A stretch of DNA of 30,330 nt from the IMG/VR virus record IMGVR_UViG_3300026201_000010, positions 1-30,330 of that record; one strand, given 5' to 3'. Numbering within the stretch: position 1 is the stretch's first letter; the number at the start of each line of letters is the position of its first letter. Positions 550 to 26,163 of the stretch are shown here, piece by piece. Both the position numbers and the translations under genes were made by a program. The stretch is from a virus. Lineage: Duplodnaviria > Caudoviricetes. The notes under the pieces were generated by a model. That model searched no databases and had not been told where the DNA came from. It saw only the letters and a program-made list of their open reading frames with translations.

Positions 550-1650
550 ATGGAAATAAAAGTAAAAGAAGTAGGTGTTGTTGAAGAAAAATCAGCAGCT
601 GAAGTAGAAGAAACTCTAATTCAAAAAGCTGAGCAGCAACACGAAGAGCAAACGCAACCACAAGTAGAAACTGAAGTTGTAGAACAAACCGCAGCTCCTG
701 AGGAAACGCAAGGTGCTGAACTAAAAGAAGAAGACGTTCTTAGTTTTATTAAGAATAGATATGATAAGGACATATCATCAGTAGACCAATTGTTTGAAGA
801 AAAAGAAAACAATATTGAACTACCAGAAGATGTGTCAGCTTATTTTGAATATAAAAAGAAAACTGGTCGTGGTATTGAAGATTATGTTAAATTAAACAGA
901 GACTTTGATTCCTTAGATGAAGACCAAATTTTAACTGAGTATCTTTTAGCCACTGAAGAGGGTATTGATAAAGATGATGTTGAGTTGTTGATGGAAGATT
1001 ATTCCTACGATGAAGAACTTGACGATGAGTCTGATATTAAAAGAGCAAAGTTAAAAAAGAAAAAAGCAATTGTAAAAGCTAGAAAGTTTTTCAATGAACA
1101 AAAAGAAATGTATCGCCAGCCGCTTGAGTCAAGCGCAACTGGTATTTCTGAGGACAGCGAAGAATATAAAGCTTACAAGCAATACGTTGAGAATGCAAAG
1201 ACTCAGTCAGAACTGCAGTCTAGGAAAGTAGATTTCTTTAATAAAGAAACTGACAAGGTGCTTAATCAAGACTTTAAAGGTTTTAAGGTCAGTATTGATG
1301 ACGCTAATTTGTTATACAATCCTGGAGGTTCTGTGCAAGAGATTAAGAAAGCTCAGTCTACGATTATTAATTTTATTAATAGTCATTTGACTGAAGATGG
1401 ATTAGTCAAAGATGCAGCTGAATATCATAAAGCATTATCAGCAGCAATGAACCCTGACAAGTTCGCAAGATTTTTTTACGAACAAGGTAAGGCAGCGGCA
1501 ACGGAAGATGTAACTAGAAAAATGAAAAACATTAACATGTCTACACGTTCTGCTCCAGAAGTTGTTTCTAAAGGAGGAACTCAGTTTCGTGCAATCAATC
1601 CAAGCGAGGGTAGAGGGTTAAAGATTAAGAGTATTAAAAGAAAAAATTAA
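550..1650 (+). CDS. Capsid scaffolding protein
   Basis: 366 aa with a very acidic low-complexity N-terminus, helical middle and short basic C-terminus (LKIKSIKRKN). Located between portal and major capsid gene. Confidence 0.7.
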   Translation: MEIKVKEVGVVEEKSAAEVEETLIQKAEQQHEEQTQPQVETEVVEQTAAPEETQGAELKEEDVLSFIKNRYDKDISSVDQLFEEKENNIELPEDVSAYFEYKKKTGRGIEDYVKLNRDFDSLDEDQILTEYLLATEEGIDKDDVELLMEDYSYDEELDDESDIKRAKLKKKKAIVKARKFFNEQKEMYRQPLESSATGISEDSEEYKAYKQYVENAKTQSELQSRKVDFFNKETDKVLNQDFKGFKVSIDDANLLYNPGGSVQEIKKAQSTIINFINSHLTEDGLVKDAAEYHKALSAAMNPDKFARFFYEQGKAAATEDVTRKMKNINMSTRSAPEVVSKGGTQFRAINPSEGRGLKIKSIKRKN

Positions 1651-6071: not shown

Positions 6072-9000
6072 ATGGCAGAGACTACTAGAAATTTTATTGC
6101 AGGGCGCATGAATAAAAGCGTTGATGAACGCTTACTCCCTAATGGCGAGTATATTGACGCACTTAATATTAGGCTGGGGTCTACTGAAGAATCTGAAGTT
6201 GGTTCGGTTGAAAATAGTAGAGGTAATCAGCAGTTAACAGCTTTAGAGCATGAAGGAGTGCCTTTAAGCTCTCAAGCTAAATGTATTGGAGCTTATGAGG
6301 ATGGGCAAAGAGAAACATTGTATTGGTTTGTACATGACCCAGCACACGCAGGAAAAGGTATAGTAGACTTAGTTGTATCATATAATGTGCAATTAAATTT
6401 ATTAACATACCATGTTGTGACAACTGGTTCAGGGCAAACAGTTTTAAATTTCAATGAAGATTATTTAATTACTGGAGTTAACAGAGTTGAGGATTTATTA
6501 TTCTGGACTGATAACTACAACCAACCTAGATTTATAAACATTACTAGAAATTATAACTCAACCTCACCTGATTTAGCAGAACAACTTTTAGTAATTAAAA
6601 AGCCACCAGTTGCAGCTCCATCATTTGAGCTAACAAATTTGTCTGGTGAAGAAAATTTTATAGAAGAAAGATTTATAACATTTGCTTATAGATATAGATA
6701 TGAAGATGGCGAGTATTCTGCTTTATCACAATTCACAGAACCAGCTTTTGTTCCTAAAGGATTTGATTATAAAATAGAATCAGGTCTGAATGAGGGAATG
6801 ACAAACGCATTCAATAATGTTAAAGTTACTTATAATAGTGGAGGTCCTTTAGTGAAAGCTATAGAAGTTGTTTTTGCTGAAACCACATCAAGTGTGATAA
6901 AATCTATAGAGATATTTGATAAACAAAATCTTGGATATGCAGACAATACAGATTACAGTTTAGATTTCAACAACAGTAAAATATATACTGTTTTAAACCC
7001 AACACAGTTAGTTAGGTTATTTGATAATGTTCCTTTAAAAGCTCAAGCTCAAACATTAATGGGAAACAGATTAATCTATGGTAATTATGTAGATGGTTAT
7101 GACTTATTAGATTTAAACACCAACCCTATAAGGCTTGAGTATTTTTGTAGGCTTTTATCCGAAGAAATTGGAGCTGAAAGTATTGGTGACCGAACTGATT
7201 CTTTTACGTATAATATTGATGGAAGTCAAAACATTGTAAATGCTGCGGTGTTTTTTGATTTTGATGATGTAGAGTTAAAAGCTGGCGCAGCTATTACTTT
7301 TGAAATACGATATACTCATTCTCAATTTTCTGGGCAAACCCCTTTTCCATCTCAACAGTCCACAAATTTAGAACTAGACTTTACATATATATTACCTATA
7401 GATTTTGGAAGTGCTTATGAATTATCACAAGACCCTTTATTTATACAGACAATAGGAACGGCAGCAAATATACTTCCAGTGTATGACCCTGTTCCTGGAA
7501 ATGAAACTTCATGTGACGGAACAACTATTACAGATGAATGGAATTGTTCTATTCCAAATACACTGGATACATTGATAAAATTTGAAAGCGGTATTACAGC
7601 AGCTGGACAACCTATAGAAATAATTTCTAGTCCAGGTAGTTCTGAGATTGGCCTTGTTGTACCAGCGATGAGATTTGTAGATGATTTAACTACACCTACA
7701 CAAAGTGTTTATGAATACTATACTGTTACTTTTGCAGAGGGGAGTTATTCAGGTATTGGAAATCCTAAAAGCTTACATAGTGATAGAGACTATGAAGTGG
7801 GTATTGTTTATATGGATGAGTTTAATCGTTCATCAACAGCTCTTGTTAGTCCTAACAATACTGTTCACGTCGGTTGCTCGGCTGCATCTCTTCAAAATTC
7901 TATTGAAGTAACTATTCCCCCATCACAACTAGCTCCAGCTTGGGCTGACCGATATAAGCTTTGTATAAAGCCAGATTTTGAGGATTACAATACAGTTTAT
8001 TCAAACATATTTTTTGATGAGGTAGGAACTGCGGCAACATTCTTTTTGCTAGAGGGTGAAAACGCTAGAAAGGTTGAAGAGGGTGATAGGCTTAGGGTAA
8101 AGGCTGATACTAATGGGCCAACTACAAGATGTCAGTACGCTACTGTTTTGCAGAAAGAAGCTCAGACACAAGACTTTATGAGCCCTCCACCTAAAGACTC
8201 TAATGGTACAGATATTCCTGTTCCAGCAGGGACTTATATGAAAATAATACCTAATGACTTTGAGGTGGTTCAAGGCGATTTACCGACAGTTTTATATGGC
8301 AAGAGAAGTGATTGTGGTAGAAGAAAAAACGAGCACCCAAGAGTAGCTTATCCAGTAAGCATTGAAGACCCAAATAACCCAGGGCAATTTATTGATTATT
8401 CATTACCTGCAGGTTCAAGAATAAATATATATGTAGACTTTAGAAGAAAAGGAACAGGGAATCGTGCGTGTGATGGAAGACGTTATATATTAGATTTAAA
8501 GCTAACAGCTTCACAGGATTATGATAACTTTAAAGAATGGTGGGATGGAGATAACATCGCTTCTTTATTAGATAGCGGAGCGGTATCTGGAATTACAGGA
8601 GACCCTGATTGTCCACCTCCTTACTATGCTAATTATTATAACCCTGCTATACAGACAGGTCTTGGAACAAATAATGCTTTAGCTGCTATGCCGCAAAACC
8701 GATGTGAATATCAGTGGCAGTTTTTACGAGCAACAAGTAACAATCAACTTTCTCTTGGATTAGTTGGAACTAACTCATGTTCTGGCGCTAAAAATTCAAG
8801 TAAAAGAAGAGCATGTATTAGTGCTAAGATAGAAGTTTTTAGGGCTGAGAATACATTGGTTTTTGAAACTGAACCACAAGATGCTACTCCAGATTTATGG
8901 TATGAATCTGCAGATGTATTTAGTATCGACAAAGCAACTGGAAGACACGATGGTAATATACAAAACCAAACTAGTACTCAATCTGCTGTTGTATTAACAG

Positions 9001-10517
9001 ACTTTTTCAATTGTTATTCTTTTGGTAATGGTGTAGAGAGTTATAGAATTAGAGATTCAATTGTAGGTAAAGAGTTTAGTTTAGGAGAAAGAACTACATC
9101 TACTTCTGAATTAGAGTTTAAGCAAGCACATCGCTTTGCTGATTTAACTTATAGTGGTGTTTATAACAATGAAAGCAATGTAAACAAGCTAAATGAATTT
9201 AACTTAGGTTTACTAAACTTTAAGCCTTGTGAAGATATATATGGTCCGATTGAAAAACTTCATGGAAGAGAAACCGATATATTAGTTTTACAAGAAGATA
9301 AAATTTCTTATGTACTGGCTGGAAAGAACTTGTTAACAGACTCCACTGGTGGAGGTCAAGTTGCTTCTGTACCTGAGGTTTTAGGAACTCAGATAGCCAG
9401 AATAGAAGAGTATGGTATTTCAAGAAACCCTGAAAGCTTTTGTTCTTGGGGTTACAATAAATATTTTACTGACGCTAAGCGTGGTGCTGTAATTATGCTT
9501 ACAGGTTCTGCAGGACAAAATGAACAGCTTACAGTAATTTCTGAAGCTGGTATGAGGTCTTGGTTTAGAGATAGATTTATTAATGGATTAAACACTCAAA
9601 AGCTAGGAGGGTATGACCCATATATGAATGAATATGTTTTAAGTGTTAATGAGGAAAATTTACCTTCAGAAGAATCTTGCATTGCTTGTGGTATTGAAAG
9701 AACATTTACCTTTCCTGAAGATAAAACATTTAATTATTGTATAGATTTAGGAGAATTAGTAGGAAATACAGATATAGAAATATTCGCAAGTGACTCACAA
9801 GGTAGCACTATAAAGGTAGTTTATAATGGTGTAGATGTGTTGCCAACAACCACTATTAATAATGGAAGTTCTTCTTTTGTTTTTGATAAAAATATTGTTA
9901 GTGAATCTGAAGCTCAAGTTACTCTTACTGGTAAAAGCGGTGCTACTATAAAAGTAGCTATAAAGTGTCCTGTTGCTGAGATTATAACTGTGTATCAAGT
10001 TTGTATAACAAATGCTACTCACGTAGGCCAAACCATACACAATGAGTATAGATGGATAGACGGAACATATTTATCGCCACTACATTCTGAGCAGATAACA
10101 TTTGTAGATGGCACTGATTTTATTATTATCAGTCAGTTTGATTCAGTAACCGCTCCGCAAGGAGCAGGAGTTATTCCTGCTGACAATGCTTCTGTTCAAG
10201 TAATTTGTCATAAAAGACCTGTTGATAATTTTGTTTTTCAGCCTACTCAAAATGAGTTATATGCCTTAAGAACTAACACCACATACGCAGCTACACCAGC
10301 TGGTATACTTTCTTTAATTTCTGCTGCAGGTACAGCTTTACCTTTAGATGTTTCTCTTGCACCAGACCAATATATTGGAAACTATACAATGACTACAACA
10401 GGCTCAAACTTATATTTAGTATATGATTATAGACAACCAACGGAAGATGTATTATGTTACGGAACAACAGACTTAAACGATGTGTGCTGTGACTGTACCG
10501 AACCACCAACACCATAA
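6072..10517 (+). CDS. Tail stabilization / nozzle (muzzle) protein, P22 gp10-like, N-terminal major part
   Basis: 1481 aa. GRMNKSVDERLLPNGEYIDALNIR start, LLFWTDNYNQPRFIN, FAYRYRYEDGEYSALS, YGISRNPESF, YFTDAKRGAV and GGYDPYMNEY are characteristic beta-propeller motifs of this family. Confidence 0.8.
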   Translation: MAETTRNFIAGRMNKSVDERLLPNGEYIDALNIRLGSTEESEVGSVENSRGNQQLTALEHEGVPLSSQAKCIGAYEDGQRETLYWFVHDPAHAGKGIVDLVVSYNVQLNLLTYHVVTTGSGQTVLNFNEDYLITGVNRVEDLLFWTDNYNQPRFINITRNYNSTSPDLAEQLLVIKKPPVAAPSFELTNLSGEENFIEERFITFAYRYRYEDGEYSALSQFTEPAFVPKGFDYKIESGLNEGMTNAFNNVKVTYNSGGPLVKAIEVVFAETTSSVIKSIEIFDKQNLGYADNTDYSLDFNNSKIYTVLNPTQLVRLFDNVPLKAQAQTLMGNRLIYGNYVDGYDLLDLNTNPIRLEYFCRLLSEEIGAESIGDRTDSFTYNIDGSQNIVNAAVFFDFDDVELKAGAAITFEIRYTHSQFSGQTPFPSQQSTNLELDFTYILPIDFGSAYELSQDPLFIQTIGTAANILPVYDPVPGNETSCDGTTITDEWNCSIPNTLDTLIKFESGITAAGQPIEIISSPGSSEIGLVVPAMRFVDDLTTPTQSVYEYYTVTFAEGSYSGIGNPKSLHSDRDYEVGIVYMDEFNRSSTALVSPNNTVHVGCSAASLQNSIEVTIPPSQLAPAWADRYKLCIKPDFEDYNTVYSNIFFDEVGTAATFFLLEGENARKVEEGDRLRVKADTNGPTTRCQYATVLQKEAQTQDFMSPPPKDSNGTDIPVPAGTYMKIIPNDFEVVQGDLPTVLYGKRSDCGRRKNEHPRVAYPVSIEDPNNPGQFIDYSLPAGSRINIYVDFRRKGTGNRACDGRRYILDLKLTASQDYDNFKEWWDGDNIASLLDSGAVSGITGDPDCPPPYYANYYNPAIQTGLGTNNALAAMPQNRCEYQWQFLRATSNNQLSLGLVGTNSCSGAKNSSKRRACISAKIEVFRAENTLVFETEPQDATPDLWYESADVFSIDKATGRHDGNIQNQTSTQSAVVLTDFFNCYSFGNGVESYRIRDSIVGKEFSLGERTTSTSELEFKQAHRFADLTYSGVYNNESNVNKLNEFNLGLLNFKPCEDIYGPIEKLHGRETDILVLQEDKISYVLAGKNLLTDSTGGGQVASVPEVLGTQIARIEEYGISRNPESFCSWGYNKYFTDAKRGAVIMLTGSAGQNEQLTVISEAGMRSWFRDRFINGLNTQKLGGYDPYMNEYVLSVNEENLPSEESCIACGIERTFTFPEDKTFNYCIDLGELVGNTDIEIFASDSQGSTIKVVYNGVDVLPTTTINNGSSSFVFDKNIVSESEAQVTLTGKSGATIKVAIKCPVAEIITVYQVCITNATHVGQTIHNEYRWIDGTYLSPLHSEQITFVDGTDFIIISQFDSVTAPQGAGVIPADNASVQVICHKRPVDNFVFQPTQNELYALRTNTTYAATPAGILSLISAAGTALPLDVSLAPDQYIGNYTMTTTGSNLYLVYDYRQPTEDVLCYGTTDLNDVCCDCTEPPTP

Positions 10518-11507: not shown

Positions 11508-12320
11508 ATGGCAGAAAATTATACATTAACATATAGCAGTTCAGCACAAGGGTGGCCTTCTTTTTACTCTTATTTTCCAGAGTTTATAAAGGGTATGAAT
11601 CAATTTTTATATACATTTAAAAATGGTAATTTATATCAACACAATGCACCTAGTGTTCCAAGAAATAATTTTTATGGAATACAAGGAAACTCCACATTGA
11701 CTAGCGTTTTTAATGAGTCTGCTTTAGAGAATAAAAAATTTAAAACAATTGCTCTTGAAGCTGATGATGCATGGGAGGGTACATTTATAACTGATTTACA
11801 AACGACAGGTTTTATTAATGCAAGTTATTTTGAACAGAAAGAATCTGACTGGTTTGCATTTATTAGAAATAATACAGACTTACCTAGCAATACCCCTCAA
11901 CTCCCTTTACGTTCACTTACAGGTATAGGATTTAGTGATGATGTTGTAATTGGAGTTAATACAGCAACTATTACCTTTGTCCCTCCGTCTAATATTGGTT
12001 CTATTTTGTCGAATGGAGATTTATTTTATTTTGGTGTAGAAACTTCACCTGGGTCTGGAGTTTACAATCCTAGCTTAGCTGGAGAGGTTACGTCATTAGT
12101 AAAACAAAACAACGGAACATCTATAGTAACTATTGATACAACAGTAGCAGGAAGCGTTGTAATACCAGGAGTTAATGAATACTTTTTGTTTATTAAAAAT
12201 TCTATTGCAGAATCTCAAGGGGTCTTAGGTCACTACTGTGAATTTAAGTTAACCAATACTTCTACCTCTGCTACAGAACTATTTGCAGTAAAAAGCCAGG
12301 CATTCAAAAGTTTCCCTTAA
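11508..12320 (+). CDS. Tail stabilization / nozzle protein, C-terminal part encoded separately
   Basis: TLTYSSSAQGWPSFYSYFPE...YTFKNGNLYQHN...NNFYG...KKFKTIALE...LGHYCEFKLTN...ELFAV is the pattern I recognise as the C-terminal portion of gp10-like stabilization proteins. Confidence 0.6.
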   Translation: MAENYTLTYSSSAQGWPSFYSYFPEFIKGMNQFLYTFKNGNLYQHNAPSVPRNNFYGIQGNSTLTSVFNESALENKKFKTIALEADDAWEGTFITDLQTTGFINASYFEQKESDWFAFIRNNTDLPSNTPQLPLRSLTGIGFSDDVVIGVNTATITFVPPSNIGSILSNGDLFYFGVETSPGSGVYNPSLAGEVTSLVKQNNGTSIVTIDTTVAGSVVIPGVNEYFLFIKNSIAESQGVLGHYCEFKLTNTSTSATELFAVKSQAFKSFP

Positions 12321-15663: not shown

Positions 15664-18600
15664 ATGGACGAATTAAAAAAACTATATGATACTCTAGTAA
15701 GAGAGGGCTATTACACTAATTCTTACGATGAGTTTGTGCAGAAGTATAACGGAAGCGATGCGTACAAAGACCAAGTGTTTGGAGTGGTATCTAGAGATGG
15801 TTTATATACCAAATCAAAAGAAGAGTTTTTGTTGAAGTACAAAAGTCCTGAGCTTAAAACAAAATCGTTTGTTGAAGTAAAAAAAAAAGACGCTTCGGAC
15901 TCAGATTCGGAAGTTGGTTTATTGGAGCGATTCAAGACTAAGTACAATATTCAAGAAGATGATGTTGATTTACGAGAGCAACCTCCAGTACAAGCGGTAG
16001 ACCAAACAAGAGTTGCACAACCAAAGTTTAGAGACCCTGTTCAAGTAGCTCAAGAAAGAGAAGTTAAAGAAGCTTTTGATGCTCAACGTAAACTGGACAT
16101 GGAAGCTTTTAAAACTCAAGAAAAGCTAGACCAAGAAGCTCAGTTAGAGCAGCAAAAAATAAACCAAACATTACTACAACAAAGTCAACAGTTTAGAATT
16201 GATTTGCAAATGGTTACTTCTGACCTTATTGCTCAACACGAAGATTATGTTGTCCCTGCTTTAAATAAAAAGTTTCAGAAGTATGGTTTCTCTTTTGAAA
16301 AAACTGGCATTGGTGATGCGTTGGTTGTTACTAATTTTGATGGTTCAGCCACAGAAACAATTGACCTCGACCCTTTTACTACAGATACAGAGATATTAGA
16401 ATCTCAAAAACTAAAAAACTTTTTATCACAACATGCTCTTGAAGAGTTTGAAACTAATGAAGCATCAGACTTTGAGGGAAAATCCTTAAGAGCTCAGCAG
16501 CTACGAAGAGTAGGATTAATAAATCCTGACGGAACTACCTCTACTGTTTTGATGACATCTTATGAAGAAGACGGTAAGCATTATGCTATTCCAACTTTAT
16601 TCCCAAAAAATCCTGAGTTCTACGGAACTAATCCTAATGACTGGATGAAGTTAGATTTTGAGGAAGCAAAAAAAGTAGCCGAAGAAAGAGGTGAGGTTTT
16701 TCAGTTTGATACAGAAGAAGAAGCGCAAAGATTTGCAGAGGGTGAGTGGAAAGACACGCATTCTACAGACGCTATAGGCAAACAATTATACTCAGAGACT
16801 GGCCTAAACTTTAAAACTGAGCAAGCAAAATATGACAAGTATCTACAGGTAAGAGATGAAATAGATTTTATAGAATCTCAGGTTGCAGATTTTGGAGATG
16901 ATTTTATTGAAGAGCTAACACCAGAGCAAAAGAAACTTTATAGTGGGTTGTATGTTAATGGTATTTTAAGAGATGATACCGATGAGGTTTTAGCAGAGCT
17001 TAAAAAAATAGAAGATGATTTATATTCTGAGGTTAACACCACAGAAAAGATAGACTTGAGAGAAAAATATGACCTGGCATTACAGAAAAAATATTCAGCA
17101 TTAGCTAAAGATGCATCAATTGCAAACTATCAAGCCAAAGCTTTTGAGGAAGCGTTGGAAGTTGAAGCACTAGAAACTTTCGGTGTTGGGCTAAAAGACT
17201 TAACAGACGTAAAGCCAGAAACAGAACGAGAAGCTGCATTACTAGATAGCTTCAAAGTTCAGGTCGCATCGCTTAATGCAGAGAAACAACATGCAGCAAA
17301 CATATATGAGTCAGCTAAAACTTTCTATAGTGCTAAGTATGACAAAAGTATTATGGGTGAGTTCGAGACAGGTATGTCTGCAGTAATGAATGAGCTACAG
17401 AAAGGTCTTAATGATGGTAATGCCGCTGAAATAATACTTCAGTTATCTACAGGAATGGCTTTTGATTTTCAATCATTAGACCTTGATAATCCAGAAGATA
17501 GAAAAAAAGCTGCTGAAATAATAGTGGCTTTAAAAACAAAAAACAGAGGTAAAAAAGATTCAAGAGCACTATCCAGATGGAACAGAGCTAAAGGATTTAG
17601 AGAAAGCTTAGACGCTTTTTTAAGAAACCCTAGAGAACTAGCATTATCTTTAGCTGCAAATTCTATAGGAATGATGTTGCCTTATGGAGTTGAAATAGTT
17701 GCAGGTTCTACAGCGACAGGTGCAGGAACAGGAGCAGTAGTAGGGTCGGTTGTTCCAGGAGCTGGTACACTTGGTGGAGCAATAGCAGGGGGTACAAAAG
17801 GATTAAAAGCTGGATTTGCCTTAACAAGTTTAGCTATGGAATATACTAATGAATATTTTGCAGCCATGGAAGCTGAGGGCTATGATGTTCTTGATGCTAA
17901 GGACGTTGAACTAGCTATGCAAGATGATGATGTGTGGGCGTTAGCAAAAGAGCGTGGTTTAAAGCGTGGTATTCCAATTGCTTTAGTTGATTACCTCACT
18001 ATGAATTTAGCTGGTAGGGTTTTTCAAGTAGGTAAGACAGCGACAAGAACTAAAAAGATTGCATCTCAATTAGCTGAACGTGCTATCTTTGACCCTGTTG
18101 GTGAGATGGCTGGTGAAGCAGCAGCTCAAGTTGCAGTGGGTGATAACTTAGATTTTAAAGAGATTGCTGCTGAGGGTATCGGTGGTTTTGGTAACAACGC
18201 CAGTATGATGGCTGTCAATAAGCTTATAGATGCACGTAATATGTCTAACATAGAGCTTGCTTCTAAACTTACTGATATAAACTTTATTGTTAACGAGAAA
18301 GAATCAGACACCAGAATATCAGCGTGGACAAATAATATGGTTACACTTGGTAAGATTAACGAAGACCAAGGACAGCGCATACAAAAAAACTTAGGCTTAT
18401 CTAAAGATGCAGATAACATGCTGGATTTTGGAAGAAGTAAAAACAAACCTAAGAATAAAAGAGTAAAGGCTAGACTAATGGAATTGTTAGCGGCCAAAGA
18501 AGAATATACTGCTGACAATAATCGTAAAGAAGTGTTTAGCCAGAAGATAAAAGATATAAACGCAGAGATTGCATATCTTATAGAAAACAAATCATTAGCT

Positions 18601-21600
18601 CCAGACAACAAGAGAGCAAAGATAGAAGCTATATTCTCACCAGGCGTAGAGGTTGGTGATGTAAGAGCTGGGCTATCTCAGTATGTGATTGACGGAAAGA
18701 GTTATAGCAAGCAAGACTTTTTAAAGAAGCTTGGTAAAATGAGTGTTCGTGAGCTGACCAAGTTCAATGGTAAGGTTGTTAATGATGTAGAAGTTGCTAA
18801 CCAATTAAATGATAAAATAGAAGATGCTTCTTTTGAAGAAACAACTATTGAAGCCACTGATGTTGCGGAAATATATGGGCCTGATGTTATAACTCATAAG
18901 ACAATATTCAATTCAAGAAAGAAAAAAGGAGGTATTGAAGCTATAAAAAGCTGGGTAAATAGCGGTCAAATTACTGGTACAAATGAAAATATAAATGAGT
19001 TTGTCGAAGGCACTGTTAATAAAAGAGGTGAAGGTAAATTAAAAATAGGAAGTGATAATAGACAAACACCTAACTTTCAACAAGGTGGAATATTTGGTAA
19101 TAGAGTTTCTGATGTAGAAGGTGGTTTTGTTTTAGTTTCAAAACCAGGGACTATACAGTCTACTGACTTGCAGCCTAATGAAAGTTTTATAAACAGAGAA
19201 ACTGTTGAAGACAGCAGAGGTATAGTACTGCCTAAACCAGGGACTCCTGCAAGAGACATAAACAACTATGATATCTATAAAGTTGTAGATGGAAAAATGG
19301 TAAAACAAAACCCTAACAAATTTAAAACAAAACCATTGAGAAAGGGTTCTGAAGTCACAGTTACAGGTACAGAAGTTTTAGAAGCTCTAAAAGCTGATGG
19401 AATTGAATCTCCTACTGAACAACAGAAAATAAAAAAATCAGATGAACTTATAAAAATAAAACAAGATGCCGTTCAAAAGTCAGAAACAGAGAGCGTGGAT
19501 GCACGCCAACAAGCCGCAATTGGCACAGGAGTGGGAACAGAAGTATCACTCGAAGAAACCCCAGGGGTTGAGACCACCGAAACGCAGGAAGTAGAAGTAC
19601 CACAAGTTGTTGGTACTAATCCTTTATCCTCTATTGAAGTATCTGAAGATTATAATGATATAGGTGCTCAAAGAAGAGAGAAGATGAAAGCTGTTACACG
19701 AGCCATGGAAGATGGTGAGATAACCGAACAAGAAGCTCTTGATTTAAGAAAAGAAAGTTTTGACAATGTAAAAGAAGCTCAAAGACTTTATGAAATTAGA
19801 AAACAAAAACGTAATATTGCAAAGACAAATGAAAAAACAAGTGAAGAAACAACCACAGAAGTCCCAGCAGGAAACAGACTCTTTAGTCAGCCCTTACAGG
19901 CAGCGACAGAAATTGCGGATAGAGTTAAAGAAAGAACTGGAATTGATACGCCAAAGGGTAAGAGAATAACAAAGTTAGACGAAGAACGTTCAAAAAGAAT
20001 ATCAGACGCATACGAAAAACAAGAAGCAAACCCTAATGACCCTGAAGTACAGGCAGCTTACAAGGCTTTAGTAGATGAAACTATAGCTCAGTATGAAGAT
20101 ATATTAGCTGATGGGTATGTAATAGAGCTGAGCGACACAGAGTATAAGAGCTCTTCTGATATGATTTCAGACCTTAGAGACAATAAGAACATGAGAGTGT
20201 TCTCAACTGAAGAGGGGTTTGGTGATGCTGGTATTACAGACGCAGATAGAGCGACTAATCCTATGTTAGCTCCCACTAAATTTAAAGACAAAAATGGCAA
20301 ACCCCTTATAGTTAATGATGTGTTTAGGTTTGTTCATGACTTTTTTGGACACTCTAAAGAGGGTAATAGCTTTGGTCCTATAGGTGAAGAAAACGCATGG
20401 GACGTTCATTCTAGAATGTATTCTCCTTTAGCTAGAAGAGCCATGACAACTGAGACTAGAGGTCAGAACTCTTATGTTAATTTTTCTGGAGTTAATGAAA
20501 AAGCTTTTAAGTTAAGAGATGAGGCCAGAGCACTAAGAAAACAAGGTAAGTTCGAGGAGGCTGAAGCTAAAGTAAAAGAGGCTTATGACATGATGAGTTT
20601 TGCTGAGCAAAAAATAATGCTTCTTCCTGAAGAGTTTAGTTTGTTGCCTGAAGAAACTCCTGAGGGTATAGCTCTAGCTGAAGAGGTATCTGATTTAAAA
20701 ACTACCTTAGATGATACTAAGGTAGACTTCAGAAAGAAAGAAGACGATTCATTTACTCCTATAAAAGGTGAAGTAGATGCAGTCACTAAGGCAATCAACG
20801 AAACACAGTCAGGAAATGTATCTACCAATCTTGTAGTAAAACCTGAGGGTACTATTGATGTTAATGAACTCAATAGTAGAACAAACAGAAAGCTTCCATC
20901 ACTAAAAACATTAGAGGTAATTAATGGTATACCTGCTATATTTAATATATCAGACCAGCTTACTACAGGTAACACTGTAAATGTTTTAACTGGTAATACC
21001 ATAGATAATTTAAGAGGTGGTCTAGGATTTACTGGTACAATTGGAAATGAAAATGCTGCGTGGGCTAGTACTACAAGAGAAGAAGCACAGAGACTATTAG
21101 ATAAAGCTAAGAAAGTATACAACGATAACAAAGAATTGTTTGATAAGTTCTGGAAAGACAATCCAGAGTTTAATGGACACGTTCCTATGAACATCGTTAA
21201 GATGGGTGAGGGTTCTATATCTTCAAATGAAGCTATTTTCAGAGTACTTAAAGACAACCTGTCTAAAATCCCTGCTGAAAACAAAGTAAAAGCTTTAGGA
21301 GTTTTAAGACAAGACCTACAAGATATTGCAAATAGAAGAGCAGAGTCAATTAAAAAAGGTCAGGGTACTGATACTACTTTAAAAAAGTATCAAGAAGAAA
21401 TAACAAATATAGAGAATGTTATAGAGGCTATGAAAGATATGAGTTCAATAGAACAAATATTAAACGCAGAGTTTCTGTCTGAATTAAATATACCCACAAG
21501 AGAATTACTTAGTAAAAGAATAACTACTGGTTCAGTTCGTAGAGCTGGTGCGCCAAAGAAAAAGGTAACTATGCCAGCGAAAAGCGGTAAACCTGTAGTT

Positions 21601-24600
21601 CTTGCTTTATTAGAGGGTATGGAGCCTAGTACAGAGACTGCTAGCTTAACTCATATACAGGAAATTACAGACCTTATTACTGAACCTCAACTAGCTAATG
21701 TGCCACAGAGAAGTATAATAGCATTACAGGCGGTTGATGTAACAGTTGATGATGTTATAGAAACAAATCACCCTAATTATCCTTTTGGTCCTAAAGGAAA
21801 AACCATAGGGATATTAGAGCAGCCTGTTTCATTGGTAGAAACTTATCCAGAAGCTTATAGATTAGCTATGGCTGGATTAACATCGGCTGAAACGAAACAA
21901 GATAGAGTAACCAAAACAAAAGCAGAAAAAAGTAAAGGGCAATTAGTTGAGGGTGAACTTGCACCAGCTAGTGTTGGAACTATATTGACGCAAAAATTAG
22001 GAGTACAATATGGCTTACCTGGACTCGAATTTGAGGGAGCACTAGCGCAGACTAATATGGATGATGCTGCTAAGCTAAATGCTTTTATGAATATTGCATT
22101 TCCGTCTGTCACTATATCTACTGACACCTCAACATTTAATAATGTTATGGAGTCTGAGGGTGTTAAAAAATATCTTAAAGGTGATGAGGTTATATATGGT
22201 GTTACTGTTGATGGTGATATATATGTAAATCCAGATGTACATAATTCTCAATCAGCTTTATTTAACACATCTATTCATGAGATGGGTCACGTGTGGACTG
22301 ACTACTTACAGACTACAAAGAAAGGAAAAGCTATATATGCACAAGGTGTAAAACTTGTAGAGCAAACAGAAGAATATAAGAAGCAACTTAAGAATTTTAA
22401 CGGAGACAAAGTTAAAGCTGCAAACGAAACTATGGCTATCCTTATTGGAAACAAGGGACAAACTATAGCTGATGGAGCAGTAAAGAGTAAGTTTACTCAG
22501 TGGCTTTTAGGTATGTGGAACTACATCAAGTCTCAATTTAAAATGTCAAAAGATTTGACGGCTGAAGAAATTCAGGACATGAATCTAGATACATTCCTAG
22601 GAACTGCACTTGCTGATATCTTTGCTGGTAAAGAAATAAACCTTACTAAAGCTCAGAAGAAAAAACTTAAGAATCCTGATGTTGCATTCAGTAAGACAGA
22701 TTCAATGGGTGCTATCATAGATAAGGGAAGACAGAACGGATTCTCAGACGCATCTATTAAAGAGGTTTTAAAAGACAGAGGTTTTAAAGTTTCTGATATA
22801 AACGCTGCTATGGAAGTTAAGGTTGATGCGTTTACACCACTGCCAGAAGCTTTTGGTAGAGTAGAGGGTGGTGTTAGCCAGGGCATGCAGTTGTTTAACG
22901 AGGTGAGACAGAAGCTTTCTAAGTTTGCGACACCAGATAAAACATTATCTGATGTCAGACAAAAGGCAATGGATTTAATTAAAGAGAATCCAATCTACAA
23001 AGCTCAGCCAGAACAAACTCAGATGGAGATTCTAGTGGACTTTGACAAGACATTGAACACACGTTCTAATGTTGCTGTGCAAAAAGAAATAGCTGCGATT
23101 AAAAACAATTTAAGGCAGCGTAAAATAAATAGCCAGAATCTAAAGGCCGCACAGATACAATTAAGAAACTATATAAGAAAGGCTCTACCAAAGTCTAAGA
23201 TGTATACTCAAGCTCAAATAAACAAGCTTATATCACGTGTTACAAAGTCTACAGTGGATACATTCCAGGCAGATACTGAGTATGTGATGAAGATTGTAGA
23301 CCAACAGAAAGCCAAGATGAAGAAAGCTGTCATCAAAGACATGCTTAAGCTGGTCAAAGCAAAAGCTATGACTGCATTCACTAAGTCTGGTAAGCGTAGA
23401 GCTAAAGGTTTAAGTCGAGAGGGTACAGCATACTTCAAAGCAGTTAAGCAGATACTTACAGCTGATGTAGATACCCTTAAAAAAATACAGGAGGACCTGC
23501 AGAATGAGAGCTCAGAGATAAGCAATCTTATAGAGAAACAACAAGATGGACAGAAGCTAACTCAGAAAGAGCAAGCTAAAGTTAATCAGGCTCTAGCTTT
23601 TGATACCTTTGGTGATGTATCTAACATGAGCTTAGAAGAAGTTCAAGGCTTAATGCAACAGCTAAAAGATGTAAGGGCCGAATCAATCGCAACGTTTAAA
23701 TCAAGAAGACTAGCAAGAGTAGAAGCGAACAAGAAAATGAAAGAGGAGGCTGATGCTCAGATTAAGGATACCAATCCTATGCTGTTTGATGCTGATGGAA
23801 ATGTTTTAAATACAAATGAGCGTAACGCCATAAAGAATGAGATACTTTCTCATTTTAGAAACTTTGAGATAGGCAAAGCTTTTAGTGAACTGGGTGAGAG
23901 AATGAAGTTTAGTACGGCCAGAGAGTTTATTCAGAACATGAAGCAAATGTTCCAACACTTAGGTACATTAAGTAATGTATTGGATAGAGTGACTCAGGGT
24001 AAAAACTTTTTTACCAAGAATGTTTATGATGCTTTGAATAGAATGGATGACCTCAACAATGCAGGTGTATTTGAAACTCAAGGGAAGCTTGATGCTATAG
24101 CAAACACAATCCCTGGTATAACCAAGGGAGTAAAACAAATATATCGCAAACTCAATAGTGGTGTTCATGTTTTAAAATTAAAGCGTAGTGATACTGGTCG
24201 AGAGTACACTGATAGGTTTAATGCAGATGAACTCATGCGTATATATGCGCTTAGCTTGAATGATGTTCAAAGACAGAAGCTTGAAGCTCAGGGTATAACT
24301 CCTGAGGTTATAGAGAATATTAAAAATATAATAGGTCCAGAAGCTGTAGAGTTTACTGACAAAACTGTAAACTTCTTAAGCAATGAATACTATGAGAGTG
24401 TTAACGATGTATACTCATACGTTAATGATGTTAACTTAGGATATGTAAATAATTACTTCCCAACATCAACGATACAGAAAGAGACCACCAAGAAGATGAT
24501 TACTGATGGTGATTTTAGTGGTGTGTTCAATGCAGAATCTGCTCCTGCTTTTAAAGAAAGGGTAGACATGAGGTCTGATGTAGACCTACACGCAGGAACG

Positions 24601-26163
24601 TTCACAACTGTTCTTAAGAATCATGTGGATACAATGGAGAAATATAAAGCGTATGCTGTAGGCACACAGAGACTCAACGCTTTATTTAAGATTGACTCTG
24701 TTAATGTATTACTAGAAGAGATGGGAGTAACAGGGCCTATAAAAAAGGCTGTTAACTTCGCTATCAATCCAGACTCTGGTAAAGATGCGAGTCTAAGTAT
24801 AAAACTTATAGCTAGACTACAGACTCAGTTTACAGGATTTGCTTTAGCTTTTAAAGCTATACAGATAGTTAAGCAGGCAACATCATTTGTGAATGCATAC
24901 TCTGATTATAGTTATTTCCCTGCCAGCTCTAGAGTTCCTAGGGTTATACAGGCAGCGGTTGACCTACCTATGTTTATGATTGATGGAGCAAAAGTAGCTT
25001 TGTCTTTAGGTAAAGATTTAGTTGGTAAGAAAGGAGCTATAAGAGAGGCTATGGAGATATCACCTACATTTAGAAAAAGGGTTGAGCAAGGTCTTGAGGG
25101 TGATGTATATGGATTAGAATCTGGGTCTCAAACATTTAAGAAGACGGCACTTACTGGAGGTAAACTTAAAAGAGTACAAGCTGCGTTTAAAACTGCAGCA
25201 GCTTCACCAACAATAATTGGTGATGTCTTAGGGGTTATGGGTTACATGATTAACTACAAGCGTAACATTGCAAACGGAATGAGTAAAGCCGACGCTGTAA
25301 AAGCTTTTAATGATTATAATGCTACTCAGCAATCACGAAGAGGAACAGATAAAATTCCACTTCAAATGAATAGTAATATATTTAATCGTGCATTTACCAT
25401 GTTCGGTAGTACATTATTTCTGCAGATGAATAAAGTTATGCAGAGTACTACTAACATTACAAGAGACATGGCTAATAAGAAAAGACCACGTTCAAAAGAT
25501 ACTAGAGATTTAGCTTTGAACTTAGCTGTTGCCAACGTATTGTTTGTAGGTGTGTCTAACATAGCTAAATTTATTAAGGGTGATGATGAAGATAAGGAAG
25601 CAGCTCTTAAGAAAATGGCTGAAGCAATGATGGGATTAAACCTTATATATCAATTACCATTCCTAGGCTCTACAGTAGAGGGACTTGATGTAGCTGGTAG
25701 AGTTATCTCTGGTATAAAAGGAGAAGAGTACAAGCAAAAAGGCAGAATATTTAATGATGATATTGTAAATCCTGTTGCTAGTGTATTACAAAAGTACAGA
25801 AAGCTAACCAAGAAGGGTGAAAGTGAAATCGGTGCTGTGACTAGAGCTTTAGCAGAGATAACTATTGGTGCACAGCTTGACCCTTTCATCGGATTATATA
25901 ACTATTTTGGTGGCGAAGAAGAGGACTTAGACCCTGCTGTTTATGACATGCTTGGTATATCTCCATCGTATCGTCCTAAAAATAAAGGTAGTGTAAGTAA
26001 GGGAATGAGCAAGAAAGATATGAAAAAATTCGCTCCTGGATTATATGAAGAATTGTACGGACCAGGCGGTAGCTTAGCTCCTGTAGAACAATTAAAGAAA
26101 GACGAGAGAAAAAGAAAGCGTGACCTCCAGAAAGAGATAGACGCTGCTATGGGTCTTGATTAA
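15664..26163 (+). CDS. Giant polyvalent ejection (cargo) protein with zincin-like domains
   Basis: 3499-aa continuous ORF with a glycine-zipper hydrophobic segment (about 17635-17840), HDFFGH...GEE (20335-20391), HEMGH (22276-22290) and a long helical C-terminal region. Last gene of the virion operon. Confidence 0.8.
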   Translation: MDELKKLYDTLVREGYYTNSYDEFVQKYNGSDAYKDQVFGVVSRDGLYTKSKEEFLLKYKSPELKTKSFVEVKKKDASDSDSEVGLLERFKTKYNIQEDDVDLREQPPVQAVDQTRVAQPKFRDPVQVAQEREVKEAFDAQRKLDMEAFKTQEKLDQEAQLEQQKINQTLLQQSQQFRIDLQMVTSDLIAQHEDYVVPALNKKFQKYGFSFEKTGIGDALVVTNFDGSATETIDLDPFTTDTEILESQKLKNFLSQHALEEFETNEASDFEGKSLRAQQLRRVGLINPDGTTSTVLMTSYEEDGKHYAIPTLFPKNPEFYGTNPNDWMKLDFEEAKKVAEERGEVFQFDTEEEAQRFAEGEWKDTHSTDAIGKQLYSETGLNFKTEQAKYDKYLQVRDEIDFIESQVADFGDDFIEELTPEQKKLYSGLYVNGILRDDTDEVLAELKKIEDDLYSEVNTTEKIDLREKYDLALQKKYSALAKDASIANYQAKAFEEALEVEALETFGVGLKDLTDVKPETEREAALLDSFKVQVASLNAEKQHAANIYESAKTFYSAKYDKSIMGEFETGMSAVMNELQKGLNDGNAAEIILQLSTGMAFDFQSLDLDNPEDRKKAAEIIVALKTKNRGKKDSRALSRWNRAKGFRESLDAFLRNPRELALSLAANSIGMMLPYGVEIVAGSTATGAGTGAVVGSVVPGAGTLGGAIAGGTKGLKAGFALTSLAMEYTNEYFAAMEAEGYDVLDAKDVELAMQDDDVWALAKERGLKRGIPIALVDYLTMNLAGRVFQVGKTATRTKKIASQLAERAIFDPVGEMAGEAAAQVAVGDNLDFKEIAAEGIGGFGNNASMMAVNKLIDARNMSNIELASKLTDINFIVNEKESDTRISAWTNNMVTLGKINEDQGQRIQKNLGLSKDADNMLDFGRSKNKPKNKRVKARLMELLAAKEEYTADNNRKEVFSQKIKDINAEIAYLIENKSLAPDNKRAKIEAIFSPGVEVGDVRAGLSQYVIDGKSYSKQDFLKKLGKMSVRELTKFNGKVVNDVEVANQLNDKIEDASFEETTIEATDVAEIYGPDVITHKTIFNSRKKKGGIEAIKSWVNSGQITGTNENINEFVEGTVNKRGEGKLKIGSDNRQTPNFQQGGIFGNRVSDVEGGFVLVSKPGTIQSTDLQPNESFINRETVEDSRGIVLPKPGTPARDINNYDIYKVVDGKMVKQNPNKFKTKPLRKGSEVTVTGTEVLEALKADGIESPTEQQKIKKSDELIKIKQDAVQKSETESVDARQQAAIGTGVGTEVSLEETPGVETTETQEVEVPQVVGTNPLSSIEVSEDYNDIGAQRREKMKAVTRAMEDGEITEQEALDLRKESFDNVKEAQRLYEIRKQKRNIAKTNEKTSEETTTEVPAGNRLFSQPLQAATEIADRVKERTGIDTPKGKRITKLDEERSKRISDAYEKQEANPNDPEVQAAYKALVDETIAQYEDILADGYVIELSDTEYKSSSDMISDLRDNKNMRVFSTEEGFGDAGITDADRATNPMLAPTKFKDKNGKPLIVNDVFRFVHDFFGHSKEGNSFGPIGEENAWDVHSRMYSPLARRAMTTETRGQNSYVNFSGVNEKAFKLRDEARALRKQGKFEEAEAKVKEAYDMMSFAEQKIMLLPEEFSLLPEETPEGIALAEEVSDLKTTLDDTKVDFRKKEDDSFTPIKGEVDAVTKAINETQSGNVSTNLVVKPEGTIDVNELNSRTNRKLPSLKTLEVINGIPAIFNISDQLTTGNTVNVLTGNTIDNLRGGLGFTGTIGNENAAWASTTREEAQRLLDKAKKVYNDNKELFDKFWKDNPEFNGHVPMNIVKMGEGSISSNEAIFRVLKDNLSKIPAENKVKALGVLRQDLQDIANRRAESIKKGQGTDTTLKKYQEEITNIENVIEAMKDMSSIEQILNAEFLSELNIPTRELLSKRITTGSVRRAGAPKKKVTMPAKSGKPVVLALLEGMEPSTETASLTHIQEITDLITEPQLANVPQRSIIALQAVDVTVDDVIETNHPNYPFGPKGKTIGILEQPVSLVETYPEAYRLAMAGLTSAETKQDRVTKTKAEKSKGQLVEGELAPASVGTILTQKLGVQYGLPGLEFEGALAQTNMDDAAKLNAFMNIAFPSVTISTDTSTFNNVMESEGVKKYLKGDEVIYGVTVDGDIYVNPDVHNSQSALFNTSIHEMGHVWTDYLQTTKKGKAIYAQGVKLVEQTEEYKKQLKNFNGDKVKAANETMAILIGNKGQTIADGAVKSKFTQWLLGMWNYIKSQFKMSKDLTAEEIQDMNLDTFLGTALADIFAGKEINLTKAQKKKLKNPDVAFSKTDSMGAIIDKGRQNGFSDASIKEVLKDRGFKVSDINAAMEVKVDAFTPLPEAFGRVEGGVSQGMQLFNEVRQKLSKFATPDKTLSDVRQKAMDLIKENPIYKAQPEQTQMEILVDFDKTLNTRSNVAVQKEIAAIKNNLRQRKINSQNLKAAQIQLRNYIRKALPKSKMYTQAQINKLISRVTKSTVDTFQADTEYVMKIVDQQKAKMKKAVIKDMLKLVKAKAMTAFTKSGKRRAKGLSREGTAYFKAVKQILTADVDTLKKIQEDLQNESSEISNLIEKQQDGQKLTQKEQAKVNQALAFDTFGDVSNMSLEEVQGLMQQLKDVRAESIATFKSRRLARVEANKKMKEEADAQIKDTNPMLFDADGNVLNTNERNAIKNEILSHFRNFEIGKAFSELGERMKFSTAREFIQNMKQMFQHLGTLSNVLDRVTQGKNFFTKNVYDALNRMDDLNNAGVFETQGKLDAIANTIPGITKGVKQIYRKLNSGVHVLKLKRSDTGREYTDRFNADELMRIYALSLNDVQRQKLEAQGITPEVIENIKNIIGPEAVEFTDKTVNFLSNEYYESVNDVYSYVNDVNLGYVNNYFPTSTIQKETTKKMITDGDFSGVFNAESAPAFKERVDMRSDVDLHAGTFTTVLKNHVDTMEKYKAYAVGTQRLNALFKIDSVNVLLEEMGVTGPIKKAVNFAINPDSGKDASLSIKLIARLQTQFTGFALAFKAIQIVKQATSFVNAYSDYSYFPASSRVPRVIQAAVDLPMFMIDGAKVALSLGKDLVGKKGAIREAMEISPTFRKRVEQGLEGDVYGLESGSQTFKKTALTGGKLKRVQAAFKTAAASPTIIGDVLGVMGYMINYKRNIANGMSKADAVKAFNDYNATQQSRRGTDKIPLQMNSNIFNRAFTMFGSTLFLQMNKVMQSTTNITRDMANKKRPRSKDTRDLALNLAVANVLFVGVSNIAKFIKGDDEDKEAALKKMAEAMMGLNLIYQLPFLGSTVEGLDVAGRVISGIKGEEYKQKGRIFNDDIVNPVASVLQKYRKLTKKGESEIGAVTRALAEITIGAQLDPFIGLYNYFGGEEEDLDPAVYDMLGISPSYRPKNKGSVSKGMSKKDMKKFAPGLYEELYGPGGSLAPVEQLKKDERKRKRDLQKEIDAAMGLD
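15879..15888 (+). other. A10 slippery run (candidate -1 frameshift / transcriptional slippage site)
   Basis: GTA AAA AAA AAA GAC at codons 72-76. The -1 frame continues RRFGLRFGSWFIGAIQD to TAA at 15939-15941. Confidence 0.45.
19466..19594 (+). CDS. Nested +1-frame small basic protein (42 aa, MPFKSQKQRAWMHANKPQLAQEWEQKYHSKKPQGLRPPKRRK)
   Basis: ATG preceded by TAAAAATAAAACAAG, like genuine starts in this window. It resembles the MPFKSxxQRxW/F...P..A..W small phage protein pattern, and main-frame GC3 jumps exactly over this interval. Confidence 0.7.
   Translation: MPFKSQKQRAWMHANKPQLAQEWEQKYHSKKPQGLRPPKRRK
19829..19969 (+). CDS. Nested +1-frame small protein (46 aa, MKKQVKKQPQKSQQETDSLVSPYRQRQKLRIELKKELELIRQRVRE)
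   Basis: ATG with A at -3, 9 nt after a near-consensus -7 element (TAATATTG, 19812-19819). It has an amphipathic C-terminal helix, and rare main-frame codons (gcg, acg, ccc, ctc, gtc) occur over the interval. Confidence 0.45.
   Translation: MKKQVKKQPQKSQQETDSLVSPYRQRQKLRIELKKELELIRQRVRE

Follow-up and report, generated by a model that had tools for sequence, protein, structure and literature searches.

The tailed-phage DNA analysed here (the window, a whole stretch of 30,330 nucleotides, positions 1 to 30,330 of IMG/VR record IMGVR_UViG_3300026201_000010) very likely carries a real, unannotated gene nested out of frame inside a giant virion gene. The nested gene occupies 19466..19594 (+) and would encode a basic microprotein of 42 residues belonging to the MPFKS family, with a net charge of +10 and two predicted helices followed by a basic tail. 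The proposal of the first-pass annotation that a real gene is nested at this site is backed by homology, by purifying selection on the +1 frame, and by suppressed synonymous change in the host frame. Judging from the sequence, we put the probability that the nested gene is translated at about 0.9.

The giant host gene and its setting

The host gene (15664..26163, +) encodes a protein of 3,499 residues and is the last gene of the virion module, which in the 30.3-kb window runs from the portal end through a 366-residue gene, the major capsid gene, more structural genes, and a crAss-type muzzle protein to the giant gene. The portal and the capsid are named by position and by likeness to annotated relatives. 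Matches to the crAssvirus muzzle-protein families PF25731 and PF25729 lie at 6072-10517 and 11508-12320. The sole family match of the giant protein is phrog_3170 (unknown function) at 1410-1609, and the Elemovirus gene at the corresponding position is annotated as 'structural protein'; the giant protein may be a head cargo or ejection protein. The gene between the portal end and the major capsid gene (550..1650, +) is termed scaffold-like, a putative label given by its position and by weak Atlas leads (0.81-0.82). It holds no nested gene in the window, and its homologues carry one in many relatives. The phage probably infects Flavobacteriia, because the 85 GenBank records matched by the window capsid protein belong nearly all to Flavobacterium and Cellulophaga phages. 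Among cultured phages, Maribacter phage Panino and Elemovirus have the closest capsid proteins (45-52%).

Near the start of the giant gene, at about codon 72, a run of ten A is found within 15879-15941 (+) and is the sole plus-strand run of at least nine A. Runs of this type (at least nine A) occur in the first 130 codons of 55 of 60 distinct giant homologues, compared with five runs farther along, in 158,511 codons. Past the window run, the -1 frame reads RRFGLRFGSWFIGAIQD and then stops, and a similar aromatic, glycine-spaced peptide follows in the -1 frame in most of the 56 runs examined. This pattern suggests that the run is likely a slippage or frameshift site, with a predicted product of about 90 residues. 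A scan of the window for promoters and terminators gives one promoter-like site (1.7 expected) and two weak terminator-like sites (0.7 expected). RNA runs contain at most 0.11 of the words, from contigs of relatives, and are uninformative on expression.

The nested frame and its start region

The nested ORF extends from ATG to stop wholly within the 3,499-codon ORF 15664-26163, in its +1 frame, and translation of 19466-19594 (+) yields exactly the 42-residue peptide given at first pass, followed by a stop. In the window, the +1 frame is shut by an in-frame stop three codons 5' of the nested ATG. Five further ATG-initiated ORFs of at least 30 residues share this +1 frame.

The 20 bases upstream of the ATG (19446..19465, +) form a putative A-rich translation start region without an SD, containing 13 A, with A at -3, -6, -12, and -13. 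These four positions are described as positive start determinants in Flavobacterium johnsoniae (PMC6847099). As many upstream A are found at 3 of the 168 +1-frame ATGs of the giant gene, the nested ATG included. Among relatives, A is present at -12 in 39/42 nested starts, at -3 in only 19/42, and the invariant A is located at -5. As a sequence signal, the SD-less, A-rich start claimed earlier is borne out by the number and the positions of the upstream A. In close relatives such as L002, approximately 190 codons just 5' of the nested gene (window ~18850-19460) are missing; the nested gene is intact in such relatives while its upstream neighbour, and hence its start region, is replaced.

The main-frame reading of the same DNA (19465..19593, +; giant residues 1268-1310) is acidic, with a net charge of -8 and only 2 hydrophobic or aromatic residues in 43. 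This composition, together with main-frame residues that are less conserved than the +1 residues, supports the earlier suggestion that the giant protein would have a passive linker here.

The first-pass annotation also took the frequency of G or C at third codon positions (GC3) as the signature of dual coding. The counts themselves, 17/43 across the nested stretch compared with 1/28 and 2/29 in its flanks, are reproduced; as a signature taken alone, the contrast is weak. The gene-wide GC3 is 26%, the flanks are unusually low, and the nested stretch has an amino-acid-adjusted z of 2.5, within the top 1.3% of windows. GC3 was rejected as proof of dual coding, given that 6.7% of the 43-codon windows of the giant gene reach 17. 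Homology and frame-specific selection, as read from the aligned relatives, place the nested ORF beyond chance, and GC3 alone is suggestive, not decisive.

Constraint on the overlapping frames

In 42 distinct cores of 75 nt, the residues M1, F3, S5, Q8, P17, and W23 are invariant. Linkers that keep their main-frame residues while losing the ATG or gaining +1 stops had been named as evidence against a nested gene; the ATG is kept in 42/42 cores. Read as a direction without formal significance, as the pairs are related and the cores were chosen by likeness to the peptide profile, the comparison of 33 close pairs gives a +1-frame pN/pS of 0.14 and a main-frame pS of 0.002 and pN of 0.099, and main-frame third positions differ by 0.008 in the core versus 0.278 in the conserved host segment. 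Along the whole gene in 16 relatives, main-frame synonymous change is 0.000 in the core window versus a median of 0.297, and 0/2,422 other windows of the giant gene are as low. The main frame conserves a D-A-x-Q motif. Translation probably uses both frames, and the giant protein seems to need only a stop-free, hydrophilic stretch at this place. The constraint suggested by the substitutions is almost one-sided, the main frame merely having to stay open.

The peptide family and its predicted structure

As proposed at first pass, protein and profile searches place the peptide in a small phage protein family that is widespread and that elsewhere forms genes of its own. Five called proteins match the nested peptide at 60-88% identity, and the profile search reaches 4,365 clusters (at 50% identity) of a viral family without a name. 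A lack of +1 homologues, which had been named as a ground for rejecting the gene, is not what is found: homologues are many, stand-alone small genes among them. Free-standing copies occur in a Streptomyces phage, a Prochlorococcus phage, and many uncultured phages; they are annotated in Streptomyces phage FlowerPower and phage 023Pt_psg01 and unannotated in P-RSP2 and C75C1. Free-standing family members are missing from the GenBank annotation of HQ332139.1 (L084) and OQ984151.1 (L081). Between a Streptomyces phage copy and the window copy, identity in the N-terminal half is at least 50%. The motif is also borne by 571 longer proteins; of the 120 listed, 111 have it at the N terminus. The family has a median net charge of +12 to +14.

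Among 29 family members, 16 match PHROG 1375 (unknown function) over the same N-terminal stretch at E up to 0.1 (best 7.5e-6), and the window peptide matches it weakly (E 0.015). The profile shares this stretch with the family and carries no function and nothing on nesting. Pfam returns only HTH_28 for the window peptide, at E 0.013 and below its cut-off, and nothing above cut-off for the 29 members, with DUF3008 (PF11450) unmatched; DUF3008 appears as an Atlas lead only (0.84), and the nearest Atlas clusters are unnamed. In the AlphaFold model of the 42-residue peptide, helices span residues 6-15 and 17-27 (pLDDT 78, pTM 0.41). A PDB sequence search with the peptide gives only summed weak matches to beta-propeller repeats, Foldseek with the model gives no match, and VIA-align with the model gives a best Z of 2.5, the two-helix model being too short to show a new fold.

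The window peptide contains no cysteine and no hydrophobic stretch. A cysteine-pair subtype (C..WxC) occurs in both giant and scaffold hosts (L111, L112, L140, L141, L161, L199, NC_062741.1, and MW202828.1) and is the form present in cultured Elemovirus. In addition, a minus-strand gene starting MPSTSKKQ in L312 (G019) scores 13.8 bits against the family profile, and possibly represents a distant sister family, as judged from this score.

Conservation of the nested arrangement in the giant gene

In the peptide-first search, the best 80 loci comprise 35 in giant ORFs, 3 in a protein of ~400 residues, and 42 outside long ORFs, and the host is always in the -1 frame relative to the nested ORF. 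In the host-first search with the conserved giant part, 59/80 loci contain an intact nested ORF, the query alignment coming from 13 hosts that all carry the nested gene and the loci being partly near-duplicates; 55 of the intact calls were made via a profile from non-nested members only, and 4 by eye. The remaining loci comprise 1 remnant, 2 free-standing copies located just after the giant gene, and 18 loci without a copy, 2 of which end before the linker. Nested copies leave the host frame open along the ORF, whereas only 7/32 free-standing copies have it open across 30 codons.

Three of the 21 contigs without a nested copy carry a copy elsewhere. None of the four copy-less contigs that are at least 90% complete holds any copy, and a sensitive search of six copy-less contigs found none. 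This gene content indicates that the nested gene is dispensable in some lineages. In a tree of the giant segment, a quick version with long-branch warnings in which gain and loss are indistinguishable, nested copies are present in most clades and presence changes approximately 11 times. The sister giants L125 (8250-8520) and L111 match as far as the nested start and differ from there on across the ORF; the L125 contig is without any copy, which fits decay or replacement. Meanwhile, L141 and L161 contain, farther downstream in the giant gene, a second +1-frame ORF of 47 residues with a MSKKDTKQ start, near-identical in both, which from its sequence is possibly another nested gene.

Among cultured phages, 68 Elemovirus records have a match beneath a gene annotated as a structural protein (60 of 82 rows listed). 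In NC_062741.1 (Elemovirus elemoB_14-3B, on Flavobacterium sp. BAL314), the nested ORF starts at 53458 and is intact and unannotated in the +1 frame of gp20, a gene for 3,694 residues, and this gp20 gives no BLASTP match to the window giant. MW202828.1 also contains a nested copy, and Maribacter phage Panino has no copy in the 41 kb examined.

A second host gene

A scan with one variant of the first eight codons as a pattern gives an estimated ~1,200 stretches in IMG/VR. Flanking sequence is available for 80 such loci: 55 sit 23-65 codons inside homologues of the window's 550-1650 gene, 8 lie in ORFs of ~2,000 codons or longer, and the other 17 are either free-standing or truncated. The window's own scaffold-like gene is shorter and without a nested copy. 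The two host genes are unrelated, and the frame relation in the scaffold-like host is identical to that in the giant host. The substitution bias in the scaffold-like host has the same direction as in the giant host and is weaker (0.241 vs 0.149, 407 close pairs). Three peptide subtypes, scored with simple patterns, are common to both hosts.

One match per contig is found in 35/35, 5/5, and 26/27 contigs of three sets, many of them fragments. In G012, an intact copy in the scaffold-like gene (L177:1501-1659) coexists with an eight-residue remnant in the giant gene (L178:1501 onward), and 21 of the first 24 bases agree between the two. These distributions likely reflect repeated relocation or loss.

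Origin, expression, and function

The term 'overprinted' used at first pass, meaning a new frame laid on an old gene, would probably have to be reversed. The small protein is far more widely distributed than its host, which marks it as ancestral by the phylogenetic distribution criterion (PMC8227390); because of this distribution, the small gene is most probably the older frame, and the linker a by-product. Its likely way into the acidic linkers of late genes was as a complete unit comprising start region, ORF, and stop, which was either inserted in frame or taken in when a neighbouring gene was read through. Such entry could be tolerated because K/Q/E-rich code reads as hydrophilic in the -1 frame once stops are avoided. 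A late mRNA of the virion module would then be read twice, once in the giant frame and once from the internal A-rich start, giving a free protein of ~5 kDa. The predicted product is a basic protein of two helices, packaged in the phage head and able to bind nucleic acid.

That there is no second gene, and that the conservation comes from a main-frame motif or an RNA element, is scarcely credible: the conserved D-A-x-Q and the modest GC3 signal would suit it, but substitutions hit first codon positions of the main frame and spare its third positions, and the +1 peptide resembles both the separately called proteins (60-88% identity) and free-standing genes whose -1 frame is mostly closed. The frame-specific substitution pattern largely refutes it, to the extent that aligned sequences can. 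Entry into the nested frame by +1 frameshifting during translation of the giant gene, with a truncated giant bearing a basic tail as the product and no separate start, is also very improbable. The separate conserved A10 run makes recoding plausible elsewhere in the gene, yet there is no slippery run at the nested site, and family members throughout carry the motif at their N terminus. Two further observations make a frameshift unlikely: the ATG never varies, and a stop shuts the +1 frame shortly before it, immediately so in many relatives and at a distance of three codons in the window. A de novo birth of the microprotein within the giant gene's +1 frame, followed by its escape as a free-standing gene, is improbable. 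Nested copies in most clades of the giant-protein tree would agree with such a birth, as would the +1 frame being the commonest for de novo internal overlaps (PMC8227390). However, a de novo overprinted frame is recognised by a narrower distribution and a lack of outside homologues, and the nested peptide has neither: the family of 4,365 clusters is far wider than the hosts, with free-standing members in Streptomyces and Prochlorococcus phages, the main-frame residues are the less conserved ones, and nesting is found in two unrelated hosts.

As for what the small gene would do, the chances that its product is a head-packaged, nucleic-acid-binding protein are about even. This role is favoured by the high median net charge of the family and by the N-terminal place of the motif in longer proteins. 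It is also favoured by the nesting hosts, both of them virion-module genes, and by the 7 of the 90 longer (fusion) proteins scanned that carry MuF (3) or InPase (4), domains that PMC5512222 describes as parts of the head or as likely packaged in virions; most of the 90 have no Pfam match. The hosts and these fusions also count against a possible, on the whole unlikely, reading in which the gene is real and late and its protein acts in the cell, binding a conserved host machine (ribosome, RNA polymerase, or a defence protein) or aiding terminase in packaging; so does the absence of a match to any named family. Phages of very distant hosts share a highly conserved sequence, as expected for a conserved partner, and a conserved host target would account for it as well as DNA would. 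The N-terminal conservation, far above that usual for capsids, argues against a specific capsid-docking role, as far as sequence comparison can tell. Terminase is the commonest identified neighbour of free-standing copies (11/31 loci), an observation that also favours action in the cell; within the closest ORFs, 15/31 loci have a terminase or portal gene, which speaks for the head role, and 16/31 have neither, in a count that covered 96/133 ORFs and 31/38 loci, without a control for small phage genes in general, and that omitted 7/38 loci as look-alikes, 6 of them resembling a ribonucleotide-reductase-adjacent layout. Some copies near ribonucleotide reductase or nuclease genes, the dispensability of the gene in some lineages, and 1/90 fusions to IF3_C (P0157, E 1.5e-40; a single case and possibly an assembly chimera) likewise speak for action in the cell.

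Comparison with known systems

The T4 internal head proteins IPI-IPIII are small, basic, and late. They provide a functional analogy for the proposed head-packaged role, and PDB searches found no likeness to them in fold or sequence. The motif is fused to MuF or InPase in relatives, in the manner of the MuF/InPase head and polyvalent proteins (PMC5512222), whereas the window copy is a lone peptide; the string 'mpfks' is absent from the available part of that paper, supplements aside. The sole phage paper containing 'mpfks' is unrelated. A literature search, lying mostly outside subscription journals and leaving supplements aside, found no description of the nested gene.

In the lambda spanin pair Rz/Rz1, too, one phage gene contains a small out-of-frame gene in its entirety; spanin genes can be embedded, overlapped, or separated, and gene callers often miss them (PMC6139136). 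The nested family is both embedded, in two unrelated hosts, and free-standing, whereas according to the available part of PMC6139136 no spanin family mixes the embedded layout with others. Unlike Rz/Rz1, the nested product is basic and soluble, without a signal or membrane segment by eye, its hosts are virion-module genes, and there is no evident partnership between the nested product and the host protein. A Rz/Rz1-type spanin pair was considered and rejected, as the peptide has no cysteine or hydrophobic stretch and the host is a virion-module gene for 3,499 residues.

In phiX174, E inside D is also an internal, same-strand +1 overlap, and de novo overprinted genes of this type similarly have one frame that is seemingly disordered and weakly constrained (PMC8227390). 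Compared with the E/D type as treated in the available part of that source, the direction seems reversed here, as the nested frame has the wide distribution and the many homologues.

Implications

Nested genes of tailed phages are known mainly from spanins. The present case would add a probably old and very common gene that occupies linkers in two or more unrelated virion genes, and a conserved gene of abundant aquatic Flavobacteriia-type phages that annotation has missed. The recurring 'DAxQ' linker motif would be explained as the shadow of the nested gene. The nested start codon is removable without altering the giant protein, and the gene is present in cultured Elemovirus phages; the proposal is therefore directly testable. 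A broader picture is speculative and rather doubtful: the ancient, widespread microprotein gene may be a mobile cassette that moves among frames of unrelated virion genes and free-standing sites, with the N-terminal two-helix motif as a general head-packaging tag that also loads fused MuF, InPase, and other cargo in phages of distant hosts. If the motif is such a packaging tag, the finding would be relevant to the loading of cargo proteins into phage heads.
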